Source: a virus
Taxonomy: Duplodnaviria; Heunggongvirae; Uroviricota; Caudoviricetes
Reading direction: 5' to 3' (one strand)
IMG/VR virus record: IMGVR_UViG_2740892439_000007
Coordinates: 1-30,004 of that record
DNA length: 30,004 nt
Shown: positions 4,413 to 29,286 of the stretch, one piece after another
Layout: each line of letters begins with the position of its first letter
Numbering within the stretch: position 1 is the first letter of the stretch
Made by a program: the position numbers and the translations under genes
Notes under the pieces: model-generated
Database searches by the model: none
The model's input: only the letters and a program-made list of their open reading frames with translations
What the model was told of the DNA's origin: nothing

Positions 4413-5134
4413 ATGAGATTTACTACCTGACGTTACGTGAACGTTATTCACCAAAACCAGCGCCTAAATGCTCTGTTTGTGACGAGGAAATGTCAATACA
4501 GCGCATATCTGGAGCACATGTTGTTTATGCCTGTTCCGGTGAGGGTGATGACGGATATTTTAAGATAGGGCGTACTTTTGCAGACGAACATTATGAAAAA
4601 TCACGCGTAACAGTAGTTGATGATAGTGATCCCGATGTGATTGCACTGCTGGACGAACTGGATAAAAGACAGCAACACATCCGACGTCTTGAGCAGGAGA
4701 ACGTAGAGATGGCCCTAACGCTTGAGAAACTGCGTGTTGAGCTGGAGACCGTTAAACAGCGGGAAAAGGATCTGTTTATGGAAAATGTTCGACTTAAGTC
4801 AGGTATAGCAGGTCTGATACACCTCGGTATTCGATATGCGGATGTCGAAGTCATGAAAATAGCTGGTGATGCCCAGCTTTCTACTCCCTGTACTGACAGC
4901 ATCATAAACAGTATTGCATCAGGCGTTTTCACCAAAGAGGTCAGCATTATGAGAACAGTAGAAGTTCGCGCTGAAGATGTAACCCCAGGTGATGTGGTCA
5001 TAACATCTAAAGGCAAACGATGTGCGGTTAAATCTTTCTGGATGGAAGGTGACAAAGTGACTCTGTTCGGTACGGATGGTTCCGAAACGGATTATGACTA
5101 CGACGAATTACTTGTTGTTGAGAGAGCTATCTAA
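4409..5134 (+). CDS. Hypothetical protein (241 aa) with an N-terminal Cys cluster (CSVC...C) and a predicted coiled coil
   Basis: ORF from GTG overlapping the upstream stop; sequence features only, no family recognised. Confidence 0.6.
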   Translation: MNEIYYLTLRERYSPKPAPKCSVCDEEMSIQRISGAHVVYACSGEGDDGYFKIGRTFADEHYEKSRVTVVDDSDPDVIALLDELDKRQQHIRRLEQENVEMALTLEKLRVELETVKQREKDLFMENVRLKSGIAGLIHLGIRYADVEVMKIAGDAQLSTPCTDSIINSIASGVFTKEVSIMRTVEVRAEDVTPGDVVITSKGKRCAVKSFWMEGDKVTLFGTDGSETDYDYDELLVVERAI

Positions 5135-5829
5135 TGACCACCGTTAACAATAAGAAATGCTACCCAAGCGAGCAATATCTTAATGAGCTGATCACCAACA
5201 TAGAGTTTGCTGCAAGGACACCTGTTGAAGTCGTGAGAGCGATGGCAGCAGAGCTACAGAAGCGGCGCGAAGCTGATAGTGCAGAACCTGTAAGCCAAAC
5301 TTACAAGTTGCCAGTTAATACACCTTGCCAAGATGCGCCAGCCCATATCTGGCTGCAAACGGCTGGAGTATGGCCAGAAGATAGCGAGTTAAGCGAATTA
5401 ACGTGGTGCAGCCACAATCAGCACCATGATGACACGCTATATGTTCGAGCTGACCTTGTGAATGGCAACTATCCGGATATTCCGGATAGTTCGGTGCCAG
5501 CGCCAGGAAAGGGCGTCACCGGTGAACGTATCCGCATTAAGCCGCATGTTTATCGCGAACTGGTTAACCGCCTCCACGATACAGCGATCAAGTGTGCTGG
5601 CACCCAGCAATTACGAGAAAAAATTAGCCGTGTTTTGGGCGACGTTATTACGCCAGATCATCATAAACAAGCCGAGAAAAGTGACCTGGAAAGGTGTCAC
5701 CTTGAGGCGGCATTAAATATTAAGCCGGGACATACGCTTGGCATTATCGATGCTCTGTTGGTTCATAAGATGGCCAGGGCTTTATTGCCGCTGGTGGATG
5801 CTGGCGATACAAGCGAGGGTGAAGTATGA
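5134..5829 (+). CDS. Hypothetical protein (231 aa)
   Basis: TAATG overlap with the upstream gene. Confidence 0.6.
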   Translation: MTTVNNKKCYPSEQYLNELITNIEFAARTPVEVVRAMAAELQKRREADSAEPVSQTYKLPVNTPCQDAPAHIWLQTAGVWPEDSELSELTWCSHNQHHDDTLYVRADLVNGNYPDIPDSSVPAPGKGVTGERIRIKPHVYRELVNRLHDTAIKCAGTQQLREKISRVLGDVITPDHHKQAEKSDLERCHLEAALNIKPGHTLGIIDALLVHKMARALLPLVDAGDTSEGEV

Positions 5830-6188
5830 GAGTTGCAGATCACATCAAAAACCTTGAAAGAATTATCGAAAACGGTGAACTCTTAAGAGATCAGATGAGA
5901 CGCACGGCAGAAGTCAGAGAGGCGATAATTCGCAGTCAGGCTGGTAAATTAAAGCAATTGTCAGAGATTAACACGCTATACAAGAACAGACGTAACCGGG
6001 TGGCGCTGCGGCTTCAGAAAGCACGTAATGAAATTAAATTGGTGGAGGCAAAACTGAAAAAACAGATCCAGCGTTACGATCAGCAAGATGCTTTTTATGC
6101 CGCCATCAAGGCGGTTGCTAATGAAATAGGCATCTGGAAGTTGCTGGTGGAGGAAGCAAAGACGAAGTTAAATGCCAACGAAAGCTGA
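5826..6188 (+). CDS. Hypothetical basic coiled-coil protein (120 aa)
   Basis: ATGA overlap with the upstream gene; last gene of the coupled operon. Confidence 0.6.
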   Translation: MRVADHIKNLERIIENGELLRDQMRRTAEVREAIIRSQAGKLKQLSEINTLYKNRRNRVALRLQKARNEIKLVEAKLKKQIQRYDQQDAFYAAIKAVANEIGIWKLLVEEAKTKLNANES

Positions 6189-6261
6189 ACTACAGGTGCC
6201 CACCAGCATACAGAAAATGATTGTTTCCACATCAAGGAGATTTTAATGTTTCACTGAAACA

Positions 6262-6399
6262 TTAAGTAAGCCAGTGCATAATTCCATTTTTTACTGATCT
6301 TAAAAGCAAAATCAAAACGATGATGAGGATAATAGCCAGAATCTGGCTAATAACAGGCGCATCTAAAAATGCACTCAGGAACTGAAAAAAAGCGTTCAT
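6262..6399 (-). CDS. Small hydrophobic protein candidate (45 aa, MNAFFQFLSAFLDAPVISQILAIILIIVLILLLRSVKNGIMHWLT)
   Basis: ORF below the size cutoff of the supplied track; single predicted transmembrane segment; weak RBS. Confidence 0.3.
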   Translation of the reverse strand: MNAFFQFLSAFLDAPVISQILAIILIIVLILLLRSVKNGIMHWLT

Positions 6400-6441
6400 T
6401 CAGGTGGTTCCTTGTCAAATGTAAAGGTGCACTTGCTCACG

Positions 6442-6470
6442 TTGACGTAGAAACCCAACCCCTATATAGT
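6442..6470 (+). promoter_or_regulatory. Sigma-70-like promoter candidate TTGACG-N17-TATAGT
   Basis: Near-consensus -35 and -10 with 17-bp spacer; no convincing CDS downstream; iteron-like motifs and a hairpin (6555-6580) follow. Confidence 0.35.
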
Positions 6471-6516
6471 TGGATTCGGTGAATGAAAGTCGTTAACGTG
6501 AGCTTACGGCACATGT

Positions 6517-6541
6517 TTTCGGAAAAACATCAGGGAACGGC
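6517..6541. repeat. Iteron-like motifs (ttttcggaaaaacatc aggGAACGGC) related to the arrays at 13548 and 16514
   Basis: Shares the block GAAAAACATC-GGGAA with 16606-16625. Confidence 0.4.
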
Positions 6542-6896
6542 TAATTCCTTGATGCGGGTGGGGTCTGTAATGCAGACCCTATCTATTAACGTCATGATTG
6601 CATCTCAAATTTTCTCCTTATCTTCAATTAATCTACATTCATTTCATCTGTTAGCCACCACAATATGTAGAAAATGGCCCTCTTGCAAGTGCATAGCTTT
6701 GTGGATAACTCAGGAAGGAAAAAGTGGCTTTCGCGCACTTTAGACCGGACAAGGCGTTCGAAAAAGTCAATGGGAAGAAAAAATTTGTTAAAAATAACGT
6801 TTGTTTGAATTGTATATATTTATGCCTTTCAATAGTTAGCATCTTATTAACATCTTTTTTAAGAGATAGAGTTCAAAAATATATAGCTTCAACATA

Positions 6897-6916
6897 TACT
6901 GTATGTGTATACAGTA
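6897..6916. promoter_or_regulatory. LexA (SOS) box TACTGTATGTGTATACAGTA overlapping a TATACT -10
   Basis: Perfect CTGT-N8-ACAG dyad 17 nt upstream of the UmuD'-like start codon. Confidence 0.8.
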
Positions 6917-6932
6917 TTAAGAGGCGAGTATT

Positions 6933-7322
6933 ATGGGCTTCCCTTCTCCTGCGGCGGATTATGCTGAGAGCCGTATTTCTCTTGATCAGCAGATAATTAG
7001 ACATCCTTCAGCGACCTACTTCATGAGGGCAGCTGATAGTCATCATCGTGAGGGAATATTACAGGGTGCATTGCTGGTGGTCGATTCCTCACTTACCCCG
7101 GTTGATGGTTCTCTGCTTGTATGCGCTCTGGATGGGGAATATCGCGTAAAAAGATACCGGAAGTACCCACGTCAGCATCTGGAGGATTTAAGAACCGGTA
7201 AGAAGGAAGCATTGCCAAAGGATGACGATGGATGCACGGGCAGCAATGCCGTGTTTGGTGTGATCACTCACATTATCAACGACGCAAGAAGTGGCGAGTT
7301 TGATGATTGTCCCGTGATGTAG
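6933..7322 (+). CDS. UmuD'-like S24 peptidase-family protein, encoded without the N-terminal cleavable arm (HumD-like)
   Basis: Begins M-GFPSPAADY, i.e. at the equivalent of the UmuD Cys24/Gly25 cleavage site; Ser (ADSH) and Lys (RVKR) of the catalytic dyad are present; no upstream in-frame start is available. Confidence 0.8.
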   Translation: MGFPSPAADYAESRISLDQQIIRHPSATYFMRAADSHHREGILQGALLVVDSSLTPVDGSLLVCALDGEYRVKRYRKYPRQHLEDLRTGKKEALPKDDDGCTGSNAVFGVITHIINDARSGEFDDCPVM

Positions 7323-7334
7323 GAGAACTGATTA

Positions 7335-7358
7335 GGCGGTGCAATGCACCGCCTTTTT
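7335..7358 (+). terminator. Rho-independent terminator (ggcggtgc aat gcaccgcc + TTTTT)
   Basis: 8-bp GC stem plus T5, 13 nt after the UmuD'-like stop and ending 2 nt before the mrp stop codon. Confidence 0.75.
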
Positions 7359-7359
7359 A

Positions 7360-8460
7360 TCACACTGCGCGGAATGCGATTTCGCCAGGTATTACTTCAC
7401 CTTGCCAATACATTTGGGCAGCAACGCGATCTGCGAGGTCACGATAAATAGCCGTAAATTCGCTATCTGGACGACTAATAACGGTTGGTGTTCCGTTATC
7501 CAGATCTTCACGAAGAGAGATATGAAGTGGCATTTGGCCTAACAACTGCGTGTTGTATTTCTCGGCCAGTTTCTGTGCGCCACCGGTGCCAAAAATTGGC
7601 TCGTGATGACCGCAGTTACTGCAAATATGCACACTCATGTTTTCGACGATACCCAGTACCGGCACTTCGACTTTTTCGAACATCACAATGCCTTTCTTCG
7701 CATCGATCAGCGCGATGTCTTGCGGCGTAGTTACCACAACCGCACCAGTTACAGGAATGTTCTGCGCCAGCGTCAACTGAATATCACCAGTGCCCGGCGG
7801 CATATCGAGAACGAGATAGTCCAGATCAGGCCATAGAGTTTCCTGCAACATCTGCATCAGCGCCTTGCTGGCCATCGGTCCACGCCACACCATTGCATTG
7901 TCGTCGGTGACCAGATAACCAATAGAGTTGGTTGCCAGGCCATGAGACATGATAGGTGCCATGTGAGTACCGTCAGGTGAGGTTGGACGTTGGTTTTCCG
8001 CTCCCAGCATGGTTGGAATTGATGGACCATAGATATCGGCATCCAAAATACCAACTTTCGCACCTTCAGCAGCCAACGCCAGTGCCAGGTTCACCGCCGT
8101 GGAGGATTTACCCACGCCGCCCTTGCCTGAGCTGACGGCGATAATGTTCTTAACGCCATTAATGCCTGGTTGGTTTTTGACGCGCTTAAGCGTGGCAATG
8201 TTGTACGACAGCTTCCAGTCAATAGCCTTTGCGCCAGTGATACGGAGCAGATCACCACTACATTGCTCTTTCAGGTCTTCAAAAGGCTTATTCCACACGA
8301 AAGGCATGATTAGTTCGACATGCAGTGTGTCATCCATCAACGCAACATGGTGTAACGCTTTAAGCGTAGTCAGGTTGTGTTTCAGGGTTGGGTGCTGAAA
8401 ATTAGCCAGCGTACCGGCTACCATTGCTCTCAGGGCATCCGGCGATTTGGACTCGCTCAT
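7360..8460 (-). CDS. apbC: Fe-S cluster carrier ATPase ApbC/Mrp
   Basis: 366-aa product with P-loop SSGKGGVGKS and C-terminal CxxC; near-identical to E. coli Mrp as recalled. Confidence 0.95.
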   Translation of the reverse strand: MSESKSPDALRAMVAGTLANFQHPTLKHNLTTLKALHHVALMDDTLHVELIMPFVWNKPFEDLKEQCSGDLLRITGAKAIDWKLSYNIATLKRVKNQPGINGVKNIIAVSSGKGGVGKSSTAVNLALALAAEGAKVGILDADIYGPSIPTMLGAENQRPTSPDGTHMAPIMSHGLATNSIGYLVTDDNAMVWRGPMASKALMQMLQETLWPDLDYLVLDMPPGTGDIQLTLAQNIPVTGAVVVTTPQDIALIDAKKGIVMFEKVEVPVLGIVENMSVHICSNCGHHEPIFGTGGAQKLAEKYNTQLLGQMPLHISLREDLDNGTPTVISRPDSEFTAIYRDLADRVAAQMYWQGEVIPGEIAFRAV

Positions 8461-8617
8461 CCCGTCTCCTTTATTTTAATTTGCGCAATTGTCGCCTTGT
8501 AGTGTACTCCAGCTACGACATTTAATCATTTATGAGAAATGCTGTTATCACATGGCAGACATAAGGCCATTTTGTTACTATCAAGCCCCTTTTCACTACA
8601 AAGAAGTAATGCCTACT

Positions 8618-10651
8618 ATGACCCAAGTCGCGAAGAAAATTCTGGTGACGTGCGCGCTGCCGTACGCTAACGGCTCAATCCACCTCGGCCATATGCTGGA
8701 GCACATCCAGGCTGATGTCTGGGTTCGTTACCAGCGAATGCGCGGCCACGAGGTTAATTTCATCTGTGCCGACGATGCCCACGGTACGCCGATCATGCTG
8801 AAAGCACAGCAGCTTGGTATCACACCGGAGCAGATGATTGGCGAAATGAGTCAGGAACACCAGACTGATTTCGCAGGCTTTAACATCAGCTATGACAACT
8901 ATCACTCGACGCACAGCGAAGAGAACCGTCAGTTGTCTGAGCTTATCTATACTCGCCTGAAAGAGAACGGTTTTATTAAAAACCGCACTATCTCTCAGTT
9001 GTACGACCCGGAAAAAGGCATGTTCCTGCCGGATCGTTTTGTAAAAGGCACCTGCCCGAAATGTAAAGCGCCAGATCAATACGGCGATAACTGTGAAGTC
9101 TGCGGCGCGACCTACAGCCCGACTGAACTGATTGAGCCGAAATCGGTAGTTTCTGGCGCTACGCCGGTAATGCGTGATTCTGAACACTTCTTCTTTGATC
9201 TGCCCTCTTTCAGCGAAATGTTGCAGGCATGGACCCGCAGCGGCGCGTTGCAGGAGCAGGTGGCGAACAAAATGCAGGAATGGTTTGAATCCGGCCTGCA
9301 ACAGTGGGATATCTCCCGCGATGCGCCTTACTTCGGTTTTGAAATTCCGAACGCGCCGGGCAAATATTTCTACGTCTGGCTGGACGCGCCGATTGGCTAC
9401 ATGGGTTCCTTCAAGAATCTGTGCGACAAGCGCGGCGATACCACCAGCTTCGATGAATACTGGAAGAAAGACTCCACCGCCGAGCTGTACCACTTCATCG
9501 GTAAAGATATTGTTTACTTCCACAGCCTGTTCTGGCCTGCCATGCTGGAAGGCAGCAACTTCCGCAAGCCGACCAACCTGTTTGTTCACGGCTATGTGAC
9601 GGTGAACGGCGCGAAGATGTCCAAGTCTCGCGGCACCTTTATTAAAGCCAGCACCTGGCTGAATCATTTTGACGCCGACAGCCTGCGTTACTACTACGCT
9701 GCGAAACTCTCTTCGCGCATTGATGATATCGATCTCAACCTGGAGGATTTCGTTCAGCGCGTGAATGCCGATATCGTGAACAAAGTGGTTAACCTGGCCT
9801 CCCGTAATGCAGGCTTTATCAACAAGCGTTTTGACGGCGTGCTGGCAAGCGAACTGGCTGACCCGCAACTGTACAAAACCTTTACTGATGCCGCTGAAGT
9901 GATTGGCGAAGCATGGGAAAGCCGCGAATTTGGTAAAGCTATCCGTGAAATCATGGCATTGGCTGACCTGGCTAACCGCTATGTCGATGAACAGGCTCCG
10001 TGGGTGGTGGCGAAGCAGGAAGGACGCGATGCCGATCTGCAGGCGATTTGCTCTATGGGCATTAACCTGTTCCGCGTGCTGATGACGTACCTGAAGCCGG
10101 TACTGCCGAAACTGACTGAACGTGCAGAAGCATTCCTGAATACAGAACTGACCTGGGATGGTATCCAGCAACCGCTGCTGGGCCATAAAGTGAATCCGTT
10201 CAAGGCACTGTATAACCGTATCGATATGAAGCAGGTTGAAGCACTGGTGGAAGCATCTAAAGAAGAAGTGAAAGCAGCTGCCACGCCAGTAACTGGCCCG
10301 CTGGCAGATGATCCGATTCAGGAAACCATCACCTTTGATGACTTCGCCAAAGTTGACCTGCGCGTGGCGCTGATTGAAAACGCAGAGTTTGTAGAAGGTT
10401 CTGACAAACTGCTTCGCCTGACGCTGGATCTCGGTGGTGAAAAGCGTAATGTCTTCTCAGGCATCCGTTCCGCTTATCCAGATCCACAGGCACTGATTGG
10501 TCGTCACACCATTATGGTGGCTAACCTGGCACCACGTAAAATGCGCTTCGGTATCTCTGAAGGCATGGTGATGGCTGCTGGCCCTGGCGGGAAAGATATC
10601 TTCCTGTTAAGCCCGGATGTCGGTGCTAAACCTGGCCACCAGGTTAAGTAA
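8618..10651 (+). CDS. metG: Methionine--tRNA ligase
   Basis: [25 protein letters not shown] (HIGH motif), KMSKS, C-terminal tRNA-binding domain; near-identical to E. coli MetG as recalled; the track ORF start at 8489 is an upstream alternative codon. Confidence 0.97.
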
Positions 10652-10673
10652 TTAAGCAACCATTCTTCACAAT

Positions 10674-10697
10674 GCCCAGCAATACGCTGGGCATTTT
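10674..10697 (+). terminator. metG rho-independent terminator (gcccagc aatac gctgggc + TTTT)
   Basis: 7-bp stem and T-run 22 nt after the metG stop. Confidence 0.8.
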
Positions 10698-10735
10698 CAT
10701 ATAGACACAACCCCTTCTGACTTTAACAAACCCTA

Positions 10736-10799
10736 AAACAATTTGTTTTCTACCTTTTGTTGATTGAGATAATAAGCCACATAAGAAAACAAATTGTTT
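10736..10799 (+). promoter_or_regulatory. Promoter with two perfect operators (10736-10748 AAACAA-T-TTGTTT; 10787-10799 AAACAA-A-TTGTTT) flanking an extended -10 TGAGATAAT (10765-10773)
   Basis: Operator centres 51 bp apart, the same spacing as at 15412/15463. Confidence 0.65.
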
Positions 10800-10812
10800 C
10801 GGAGTGGTTGAA

Positions 10813-11112
10813 ATGTTGAACATTACCCAAGCCTACCAGGTGGCATTGATCAGTTCATCTCATACATCAGAGGAAGATGCTCGCCGATTCATGATCGCAA
10901 GCAATGAGCTGGATTGGGTTTCACAAATTGACGGCGGTTGTATTGTCCACGCCGGGTTACAGGATGATGTCTGGAAAGAGGACTTGCGTCGATATGGTAT
11001 ATCCGAAGGCGCAATTGCTAACATTCAGAAAGTACTTGATGTAGGCTTTGACTGTGTACATTTTGATTGTGGTGCGCCGATCGTTGAAGGGCTTGAGTGC
11101 TGGTGTTGGTAG
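10813..11112 (+). CDS. Hypothetical protein (about 100 aa)
   Basis: ATG at 10813 with GGAG 8 nt upstream; the track start at 10804 is an alternative codon. Confidence 0.6.
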   Translation: MLNITQAYQVALISSSHTSEEDARRFMIASNELDWVSQIDGGCIVHAGLQDDVWKEDLRRYGISEGAIANIQKVLDVGFDCVHFDCGAPIVEGLECWCW

Positions 11113-11282
11113 AGTGTATAAGCGGATCAATGAGTTACGGAAACAGTTAATAATGAGGAGCTTGTAATAAGCTGTATACCCTAGAAAAGCTAGACTAGGG
11201 AATAAAATGACGTGAAACTGGGCGGGACAGTAAATAATTCCGAATGATAATTGAACAAATAACCCCTTGCTCGGAGCTTGGA

Positions 11283-12482
11283 ATGACTGATACCGCTTTT
11301 TCAAAATCGTTACAAAAAGAAGTCGATCCTGAGCAGTACTTGGCGCTAAAGAATTTAGATGACAGCTCGGTTCATGCTATTGCCCGTGACGATATCATCT
11401 GCCCCATTTGCAAAGTTGGAGGTGGTTCGTTCGTTAGAGCCACTAGGAATGGTGGCTATCACAAGAAGGCGCATTTCAGATTTACCGGTGAAGATGGTCA
11501 AGGCCATCATCCATCATGTGATTTCTATGGAGATAGATTAACATCTGAGGTGAAGCAGCACCTTGTCTCATTCACAAAAGATCGAACAAAGTATTCGCAG
11601 GTAATACGAAAGCTGGTCTGTGCCGGCATACAGGAAGGGATATTTACTCAAGAAAAAATGTGGCAGATGAGGGAATGGTTCTTCAATAAGCGAAAGGATT
11701 CCACATTTGAAATATGGTTAGAAAGCGAGCATTTAGACTGGCTTTATTATATTAGTGGGTTACGTGATGCATATCTAGCATGGACAACTCCTGATATTCT
11801 ACCTTTCGCGCCCATTCAGGTTACTGTCCCTGGTTTTTCTTGGAGGCGTGCGATTGACAAAGAGGTGCTAAGAGTTCACATCAAGACTCTCCAGCAATTG
11901 CGTGAAATTTCAGTCTCACATAGTGACATTGCTGTAATCTTAGAACACATAAACAATAATCGTGACCGCACAATTCTCGATCCATCGCATTTGGAGGACG
12001 AGATAAGTAAGACCTATAAGCTTACTAGTTTTGTGATGGGCAATTACATTGAGTTTCAGACAAAAACGGTTAGCGACAGAGCATACGGGGAAGCTAAGTT
12101 TCTGGCATTTGCAGCACTTTTGTTGTTCGTGTCAGATTGGGACCTCAACATTGCTATTGGTAAGTTTTCTAAGATTGCCAGAGTGAAGGAGGTTGATGAC
12201 ATGCTGGCTGGTAATTTCATTGGTCTTAATCCTTACTTCCGATACGACCTGGCTAATGCAGTGAAGAGATTGCAGGATAACTGGCCGATTGAATACCAAG
12301 AGTTGGAGCATTGGAATGTTGAGAAATCCATGCGTGACGCATATGAAAAGTGGCGTGCGACAGAGCTGAATTCGCTCCACCCCTATTGCCAGACTTGTAT
12401 ATTGCCAAACATGAGAAAGAAGTCGCACAAGACGAGCAAGTCAGGCAGTGGATTAAGAACGGGGATGTTTGATTGTAATTAG
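11283..12482 (+). CDS. Hypothetical protein (about 399 aa) with an N-terminal Cys/His cluster (CPICK ... HHPSCDF)
   Basis: ATG at 11283 has GGAG 6 nt upstream, whereas the track start at 11244 has no RBS; no family recognised. Confidence 0.65.
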   Translation: MTDTAFSKSLQKEVDPEQYLALKNLDDSSVHAIARDDIICPICKVGGGSFVRATRNGGYHKKAHFRFTGEDGQGHHPSCDFYGDRLTSEVKQHLVSFTKDRTKYSQVIRKLVCAGIQEGIFTQEKMWQMREWFFNKRKDSTFEIWLESEHLDWLYYISGLRDAYLAWTTPDILPFAPIQVTVPGFSWRRAIDKEVLRVHIKTLQQLREISVSHSDIAVILEHINNNRDRTILDPSHLEDEISKTYKLTSFVMGNYIEFQTKTVSDRAYGEAKFLAFAALLLFVSDWDLNIAIGKFSKIARVKEVDDMLAGNFIGLNPYFRYDLANAVKRLQDNWPIEYQELEHWNVEKSMRDAYEKWRATELNSLHPYCQTCILPNMRKKSHKTSKSGSGLRTGMFDCN

Positions 12483-28398: not shown

Positions 28399-29286
28399 AT
28401 GAATCTGTGGCAAATGCTTTTGGCCCGTCGTGGTCTGATGGATGTCGCTGAAGCGCATGAGCGTGGAGGCGCTGGCGGTGTAGCTGCTGATAATGAGCAG
28501 AGTACACAAGATCCTGACAAACAGGGTGAACAAAAAGAGCAGCCGAAGGGCGATGACGAATACGCTGGCATGACTCAGGAAGAGTTACTGGCCGAACTTC
28601 GTAAAACCAAGAAAGCTGGTGCTGAACTGCTGAAGGAGAACATGAAGCGCAAAGAGAAAGAGCGCACATTGGCCGATCAGCTTGCTCAGTACGGTGATAT
28701 CGATCCGGCTCGTGCTCGCCAGCTTTTAGAAGCTGAACAGGCCGCAGAAAACGCACGTCGTGAGGCGGAGCAAGCTGAACTGGAGCGTCGTGGTGAGTTC
28801 GATGCTGTTAAAAAACAGATGATCGAAGCACACCAGGCAGAGCTGGCACAGCGTGACGAACGTTATGCAGCACTGGAAAGTGAAAACGCATCACTGAAAT
28901 CTCAATTAGTCGAGATGACCGTGGGCGCTTCCTTCAGTAACTCTCTCTTCCTACGTGACAAAGTTCTGATGACCCCGGCAAAAGCCCGCGTGATCTACGG
29001 TTCTCATTTTGAAGTGGGTGAAGACGGTAGCGTAGTGGGTTATGACAAACCGGCAGGTCACAAAGAACGAGCTGTTCTGGTTGACGGTGAAGGTAAGCCG
29101 TTGCCGTTTGAATCCGCGATTGAACGCATTGTGCGGGCAGATCCGGAAGCTGACGCATTGATGCGTAGCGAAGCCAAGCAGGGTGTAGGCTCACATTCCA
29201 AATCGACCTACACAATATCCCGACCGAAGAACAAGTCGACTATGGATAAGTTGGCCTCCGGTCTGGGGAAAATTGGACTTAAGTAA
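28399..29286 (+). CDS. Scaffolding protein candidate (295 aa)
   Basis: Position between portal and capsid; acidic, Ala/Glu-rich coiled-coil-like composition. Confidence 0.55.
   Translation: MNLWQMLLARRGLMDVAEAHERGGAGGVAADNEQSTQDPDKQGEQKEQPKGDDEYAGMTQEELLAELRKTKKAGAELLKENMKRKEKERTLADQLAQYGDIDPARARQLLEAEQAAENARREAEQAELERRGEFDAVKKQMIEAHQAELAQRDERYAALESENASLKSQLVEMTVGASFSNSLFLRDKVLMTPAKARVIYGSHFEVGEDGSVVGYDKPAGHKERAVLVDGEGKPLPFESAIERIVRADPEADALMRSEAKQGVGSHSKSTYTISRPKNKSTMDKLASGLGKIGLK

Follow-up and report, generated by a model that had tools for sequence, protein, structure and literature searches.

UmuD/UmuD', the accessory subunit of Escherichia coli Pol V, belongs to the S24 family and is known from several structures (PDB 1UMU, 1AY9, 1I4V, 8GMT). 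Its gene is regulated by LexA and forms an operon with umuC. A phage homologue, HumD, was reportedly characterised in phage P1 in 1999. In that work by McLenigan et al., P1 HumD is said to have taken over the functions of UmuD' in living cells, to form dimers, and to bind both UmuC and RecA filaments; it is also said to have been poorly expressed, with complementation that was weak at low copy number. The P1 protein (AAQ14181) counts 129 residues, starts with MGFPSPAADY, and is encoded without a linked umuC. In P1, the gene lies beside hot and a divergent lxr, which shares the LexA box with humD, and is followed by phd-doc.

Related genes occur in other temperate phages. N15 gp26, phiKO2 gp23, HK140 gp28, HK639 and the BTP1-like P22 phages encode proteins of 126-130 residues that, like the one described here, are pre-truncated, and the N15, phiKO2, HK140 and HK639 loci each present an upstream LexA box, as here, on different phage backbones. 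These homologues stand alone, near tail-fibre, integrase or partition genes, without umuC. No umuC was found in the examined loci of P1, phiKO2, N15, HK140, HK639, pAEv1818 and yong1, and LexA-type boxes lie 5' of the humD homologue in all seven, with 16-18 of 20 consensus matches (and, in one of them, a single core mismatch). As the box is present in each of these seven other phages, the design belongs to the HumD family. A LexA box, a pre-truncated UmuD' and the lack of umuC constitute the standard design of a recognised accessory gene family of temperate phages. In phiKO2 (1181-1884 of the locus) and HK140 (910-1890 of the locus), a dinI homologue accompanies that of humD; the phiKO2 dinI is divergent and shares the annotated LexA site. 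Together with the humD, lxr and hot combination of P1, these pairs show that small SOS modules recur in varied combinations in temperate phages.

The window analysed here, a stretch of 30,004 nucleotides from an IMG/VR virus record (IMGVR_UViG_2740892439_000007), carries a gene of this type. The features of the region are as follows:

5463-6783, plus strand: P1-derived segment (3' part of pmgT, pmgU, pmgV, and the upfM-upfN-upfO region), 95.3% identical in nucleotides to P1 AF234173 84872-86195.
6784-6896, no strand: AT-rich 113-bp segment holding the predicted -35, unaligned to P1, between two homology blocks.
6872-6900, plus strand: predicted sigma-70 promoter, with -35 TTCAAA (6872-6877), a 17-nt spacer and -10 TATACT (6895-6900), 9 of 12 consensus matches.
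6897-6916, no strand: LexA (SOS) box TACTGTATGTGTATACAGTA, with 18 of 20 positions as in the consensus TACTGTATATATATACAGTA; it ends 16 bp before the humD ATG.
6918-6920, plus strand: TAA stop in frame with humD, from the translation of 6783-6962.
6919-6924, plus strand: Shine-Dalgarno-like AAGAGG, 8 nt 5' of the humD ATG, read directly from the sequence.
6933-7322, plus strand: humD, 129 aa, UmuD'-like HumD without N-terminal arm, beginning MGFPSPAADY.
7334-7360, plus strand: hairpin resembling an intrinsic terminator, its 9-bp stem containing 7 G-C pairs and a T-run coming after it, located where humD and apbC converge.
7360-8460, minus strand: apbC (= mrp), the next gene after humD, convergent to it.

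The original prediction described a pre-processed UmuD'-like gene, starting at the point where UmuD is cleaved (Cys24/Gly25), with no possibility of adding the arm from upstream, and the alignments agree with it on each of these points. HumD Gly2 falls on UmuD Gly25, and also where the UmuD' crystal chain 1umu_A starts, so the protein starts exactly at the cleavage point. HumD 2-116 is matched to 25-136 of full-length UmuD (8gmt_B), with E = 7e-23 to 7e-22 for 1umu_A/8gmt_B, and the UmuD' structures (1umu, 1i4v, 1ay9) together with full-length UmuD 8gmt_B are matched with E = 7e-23 to 2e-17. Upstream, the in-frame TAA stands five codons before the ATG, and the translation of 6783-6962 contains more stops beyond it, so that no alternative start adds an N-terminal arm. 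An upstream start or exon restoring a full-length UmuD was therefore sought and rejected, given these stops and the fact that P1 homology begins at the LexA box. The overlapping plus-strand ORF 6724-6996 bears, by eye, no likeness to the UmuD arm. Relative to E. coli UmuD, HumD thus lacks the 24-residue arm, and needs no RecA-mediated self-cleavage; it differs further by some 4 inserted residues and by a C-terminal tail of 13 residues, and its gene is not in an operon with umuC.

The protein reaches 219.8 bits against the NCBIfam equivalog NF051876 ("HumD family translesion DNA polymerase"; cut-off 120), its residues 1-129 covering profile positions 1-129 of 129, and it shares 42% identity over 118 residues with E. 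coli UmuD' (BLASTP). With tblastn, it is 100% identical to a protein encoded by Escherichia phage Cyrano, shares 91.5% identity with P1 HumD (11 of 129 residues differ), and is 90.7-93% identical to the P7, D6, SJ46 and RCS47 proteins, and 62-71% identical to those of N15 (gp26), phiKO2 (gp23), HK140, HK639 and BTP1-like phages. The original prediction spoke of a likeness to P1 HumD, which understates the case; by these scores, the 6933-7322 gene is a HumD orthologue, and not merely an analogue of P1 HumD.

The SOS box had been predicted as a CTGT-N8-ACAG motif overlapping the -10. This core is found at 6899-6914; both 8-bp half-sites of TACTGTATGTGTATACAGTA are perfect, and the full 20-mer is near-consensus, slightly closer to it than the P1 box (17 of 20). 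The 6897-6916 site is the only one in the 30-kb window within three mismatches of TACTGTATATATATACAGTA, and 100 dinucleotide-preserving shuffles of the window yielded 0 such sites. The looser CTGT-N8-ACAG pattern occurs 3 times in the window, for 0.42 expected, and the other two occurrences, at 11618 and 14643, were rejected as SOS boxes: they have G+C-rich spacers, lie inside ORFs and differ from the 20-mer consensus by more than three mismatches. The site is homologous to the P1 site annotated "LexA binding site in the regulatory region of lxr and humD", and occupies the same position relative to the gene, 16 bp from the ATG here versus 19 bp in P1. The predicted -10 TATACT, a consensus match only, overlaps the box by 4 bp. 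Promoter-like sites in the humD region number 3, for 3.0 expected by chance, and the 6872-6900 promoter is to be read as a prediction only, since such matches are no commoner here than in shuffles. LexA control of humD is best termed putative. Each element of the original observation was borne out where it had been placed.

Taken together, the HumD model, the identity to P1 HumD and the P1-like position of the LexA box support what had been proposed for this locus, a pre-processed UmuD' supplied by a mobile element under an SOS box. In our reading, to which we give a probability of about 83%, the 6933-7322 gene is humD, a ready-made phage UmuD' that would be derepressed from LexA and would activate host UmuC without RecA-mediated cleavage. 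In an undamaged cell, host LexA bound to the box overlapping the promoter would keep humD off. Upon DNA damage, RecA filaments would form and LexA would cleave itself, allowing humD to be transcribed alongside the host umuDC operon. HumD would then dimerise like UmuD' and bind host UmuC, with no RecA-mediated self-cleavage, and the HumD-UmuC complex with RecA-ATP would give an active Pol V-type translesion polymerase earlier than via host UmuD, the delay normally imposed by UmuD cleavage being bypassed. The gain would be replication across lesions, including those in the element's own DNA, and the cost would be mutagenesis. LexA control in vivo, dimerisation, UmuC binding and a mutagenesis phenotype are what we infer for this protein by analogy with its P1 orthologue. 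Substitution for UmuD' (dimer formation, binding to UmuC and to RecA filaments, restored SOS mutagenesis) is known only for P1 HumD (cited in PMC7092418). The contribution of HumD to the physiology of the cell may nonetheless be small, given the poor expression and weak complementation mentioned above for the P1 protein.

The partner expected in this scheme is not encoded nearby. The window is closely related to the complete, 111,205-bp E. coli plasmid NZ_OZ501614.1, to which it is 98.2-99.5% identical where aligned, in three blocks, and its 6700-7400 region is 100% identical in DNA to E. coli plasmids of 111-113 kb. In NZ_OZ501614.1, RefSeq names the gene "HumD family translesion DNA polymerase" (WP_000506720.1). 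No Y-family polymerase is found among the 123 annotated features of this plasmid, which bears out the claim that humD has no umuC partner. The possibility that the element encodes a umuC or dinB partner at some other site was considered and rejected, since none is annotated among these 123 features of the near-identical plasmid, and the 412-aa plus-strand ORF 11244-12482, the only ORF specific to the window, has no Pfam match. It had also been proposed that the partner would have to be host UmuC or DinB. The first half of this proposal stands, as UmuC is the partner expected from the P1 work; DinB is not expected from it.

The element itself was delineated from the same plasmid. NZ_OZ501614.1 encodes terminase, portal, capsid and tail genes, RepB, ParB and four tRNAs; it also encodes RecA, DnaE, a gp32-type SSB, a DnaB-like helicase, a primase, a ligase, NrdAB, ThyA and DfrA51. 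The structural protein at 28399-29286 of the window is 89.9% identical to its counterpart in Salmonella phage SSU5, and dfrA51 was first defined in SSU5 (PMC12217456). From this structural-protein identity and dfrA51, the host element is, by sequence relationship, an SSU5-like phage-plasmid of E. coli, a type that also comprises phage Cyrano and several 105-113 kb plasmids of this species, whereas P1 humD sits on a P1-like backbone. SSU5 is absent from the phage records with a humD homologue at 80% coverage or more, which makes humD an accessory gene within the SSU5-like group. Two frames are broken in the window relative to NZ_OZ501614.1, which is 99.9% identical in this comparison. At about 25910, one G of a GG run is missing from the terminase large-subunit gene, and at about 27994, one G of a GGG run is missing from the portal gene. 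Either the assembly is wrong at these points, or the window represents a defective form of the phage-plasmid that persists only as a plasmid.

Downstream of humD, the gene order departs from that of P1, with the convergent apbC-metG pair in place of phd-doc. The next gene had been named as mrp, and apbC is indeed this gene. The apbC-metG block, from about 7364 to 10652, shows about 90% nucleotide identity to the pair found in every E. coli chromosome searched, and the chromosomal homology spans exactly apbC, metG and the intergenic region between them, and nothing more. The block was also found at 226 plasmid places. A diverged copy of metG, the essential methionyl-tRNA synthetase gene, is therefore carried by the phage-plasmid along with apbC. 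A chromosomal island lying beside the host mrp was rejected as the origin of the window, in view of its similarity to a 111-kb plasmid, the match of the structural protein to SSU5, and the element's own apbC-metG pair. In the accessory region further downstream of metG, the segment 11103-12496, which contains the 412-aa ORF discussed above, is missing from NZ_OZ501614.1. Searches of the 30-kb window for known RNA families and tRNAs found none.

At 4413-11969 of NZ_OZ501614.1, outside the window, RecA, a 5'-3' exonuclease, a gp32-type SSB and a full-length DnaE are encoded, unusual company for an SOS-induced UmuD'-like gene. With RecA, DnaE and SSB encoded by the element, partners other than host UmuC become conceivable. 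HumD could act mainly as a modulator. It would bind to RecA filaments, to Pol III alpha or to the beta clamp, or pair with host UmuD as a heterodimer, and thereby retune the SOS checkpoint, recombination or replication for the phage-plasmid, possibly via the element's own RecA or DnaE (Pol III alpha). UmuD and UmuD' are reported to bind Pol III subunits and the beta clamp, which counts in favour of such a role, as do the replication and recombination proteins of the near-identical plasmid, the proximity of P1 humD to the Pol III theta homologue hot, and the pairing of the phiKO2 and HK140 homologues with dinI, a regulator of RecA filaments. Nevertheless, hot is absent here, in the one experimental study of the family the P1 member reportedly gave UmuD'-like complementation and UmuC binding, and the sequence offers nothing to separate this role from the canonical one. 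We hold a mainly modulatory HumD to be unlikely. A more specific proposal, in which HumD would serve the replication and recombination proteins of the element, for instance by joining its RecA filament or tuning its Pol III alpha after damage, instead of or besides activating host UmuC, seems to us distinctly improbable; if true, HumD would belong to a damage-tolerance module that is triggered by SOS and that the phage-plasmid supplies in full by itself.

The region around humD is composite. Upstream of humD, the pmgT'-pmgU-pmgV-upfM/N/O order is that of P1. The 113 bp at 6784-6896 then replace 1,030 bp of P1 that comprise the late promoter LPhot, hot and lxr, so that both hot and the divergent lxr are lost here. 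This 113-bp junction was found in 119 E. coli records, at 121 places, 110 of which are on plasmids, those among the matches listed measuring 105-133 kb. P1 homology restarts exactly at the LexA box and stops at the humD stop codon; the hairpin at 7334-7360 belongs neither to the P1 homology nor to the stretch matching E. coli chromosomes, which begins at about 7364. The LexA box and humD show only about 84-85% nucleotide identity to P1 (85.5% for humD), versus 95.3% for the adjoining segment. As humD is far more diverged from P1 than its neighbour, at least two sources contributed to this mosaic region. That humD simply arrived together with the adjacent P1 segment in a recent transfer is doubtful, given these two identity levels and a dS of 0.80 between the humD genes. 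The pmgT to humD interval is one of eight highly variable regions in a survey of P1-like phage-plasmids (PMC9603915). In our reading, humD is an accessory gene at the margin of DNA that the element obtained from a P1-like phage-plasmid. An unannotated minus-strand ORF (6262-6399) of 45 aa lies some 500 bp 5' of the LexA box, in a non-coding-looking, P1 upfM-like stretch. Its product, MNAFFQFLSAFLDAPVISQILAIILIIVLILLLRSVKNGIMHWLT, is strongly hydrophobic, and the ORF may be due to chance or code for a small membrane peptide.

Such a mosaic accessory region, the lack of humD in SSU5, and the reportedly poor expression of P1 HumD would all suit a non-functional passenger brought in with the P1-derived segment. 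This is very improbable in view of how the gene has been maintained. The ORF is intact and its product identical to that of phage Cyrano, and the LexA box, the Shine-Dalgarno sequence and the terminator are all kept. Between humD and P1 humD, dN is 0.042 for a dS of 0.80, and a dN/dS of about 0.05 at this level of synonymous divergence implies strong purifying selection on the HumD protein. In addition, the humD arrangement (6700-7400 as a query, at least 80% covered) is present in 117 of 5,426 complete E. coli genomes, i.e., about 2%.

The Ser/Lys dyad was predicted to be conserved, and its positions are: from the structure-sequence alignment and BLASTP, HumD Ser36 corresponds to UmuD Ser60, and Lys73 to Lys97. 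Nevertheless, the GDSM motif is degenerate, reading A-DSH with a one-residue deletion. In a family alignment of 122 sequences (120 database homologues, the query and UmuD'), the Ser60 column holds Ser in 77, Thr in 43 and Ala in 2, the Asp preceding it is highly variable, and the Lys97 column keeps Lys in 119. The N-terminal extension is absent in 112 of the 122, with a nearly invariant Met-Gly-Phe-Pro-Ser-Pro start. As the motif is degenerate and Thr occupies the Ser column in 43 of the 122 sequences, catalytic activity of the HumD S24 site is doubtful; given the variation in the Ser column and at the Asp, the dyad, although present, looks across the family like a relic rather than a working protease site. 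Variable Ser60 and Asp positions with a kept Lys97 fit a protein in which the need for self-cleavage has been lost and the fold retained. The models for self-cleaving proteins point the same way. HumD scores 87 bits with the autoproteolytic UmuD model NF007621 (PRK10276), below its cut-off of 110, and 27.2 bits with the LexA model TIGR00498 (cut-off 110.95), of which only the C-terminal profile positions 91-166 are matched; the Cys-Gly (or Ala-Gly) cleavage-site arm of autoproteolytic UmuD is absent, and is barred by the upstream in-frame stop. That HumD might be an active, self-cleaving S24 peptidase, or what is left of a LexA/CI-type repressor reduced to its C-terminal domain, is suggested by the older names on its homologues ("S24 family peptidase", "LexA family transcriptional regulator", "LexA-like peptidase S24"), by its Pfam Peptidase_S24 match (PF00717, 37.9 bits for a gathering score of 23.3), and by the placement of Ser36 and Lys73 on the catalytic dyad, yet with neither a DNA-binding domain nor a cleavage-site arm, sub-threshold scores for both models, and a vestigial-looking active site, it is the least credible reading of all.

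Annotation already covers the HumD family, how it is regulated and this locus itself, and the finding is already known, since NCBI holds a HumD model, RefSeq gives the HumD name to the gene in 100% identical DNA, and phage Cyrano encodes the identical protein. The comparison nevertheless makes small additions to this picture, namely the exchange of a cassette, the loss of hot and lxr, and the degeneration of the S24 motif throughout the family. The gene is exchanged between the unrelated P1-like and SSU5-like phage-plasmid lineages as a compact cassette consisting of the LexA box and the coding sequence. With the present locus, a LexA box lies 5' of a pre-truncated UmuD' homologue in 8 of the 8 loci checked, from elements whose hosts are Escherichia, Klebsiella, Hafnia and Aeromonas. 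It is an established idea that elements providing a constitutively active Pol V subunit when SOS is induced could increase the mutagenesis that clinical strains undergo under stress.
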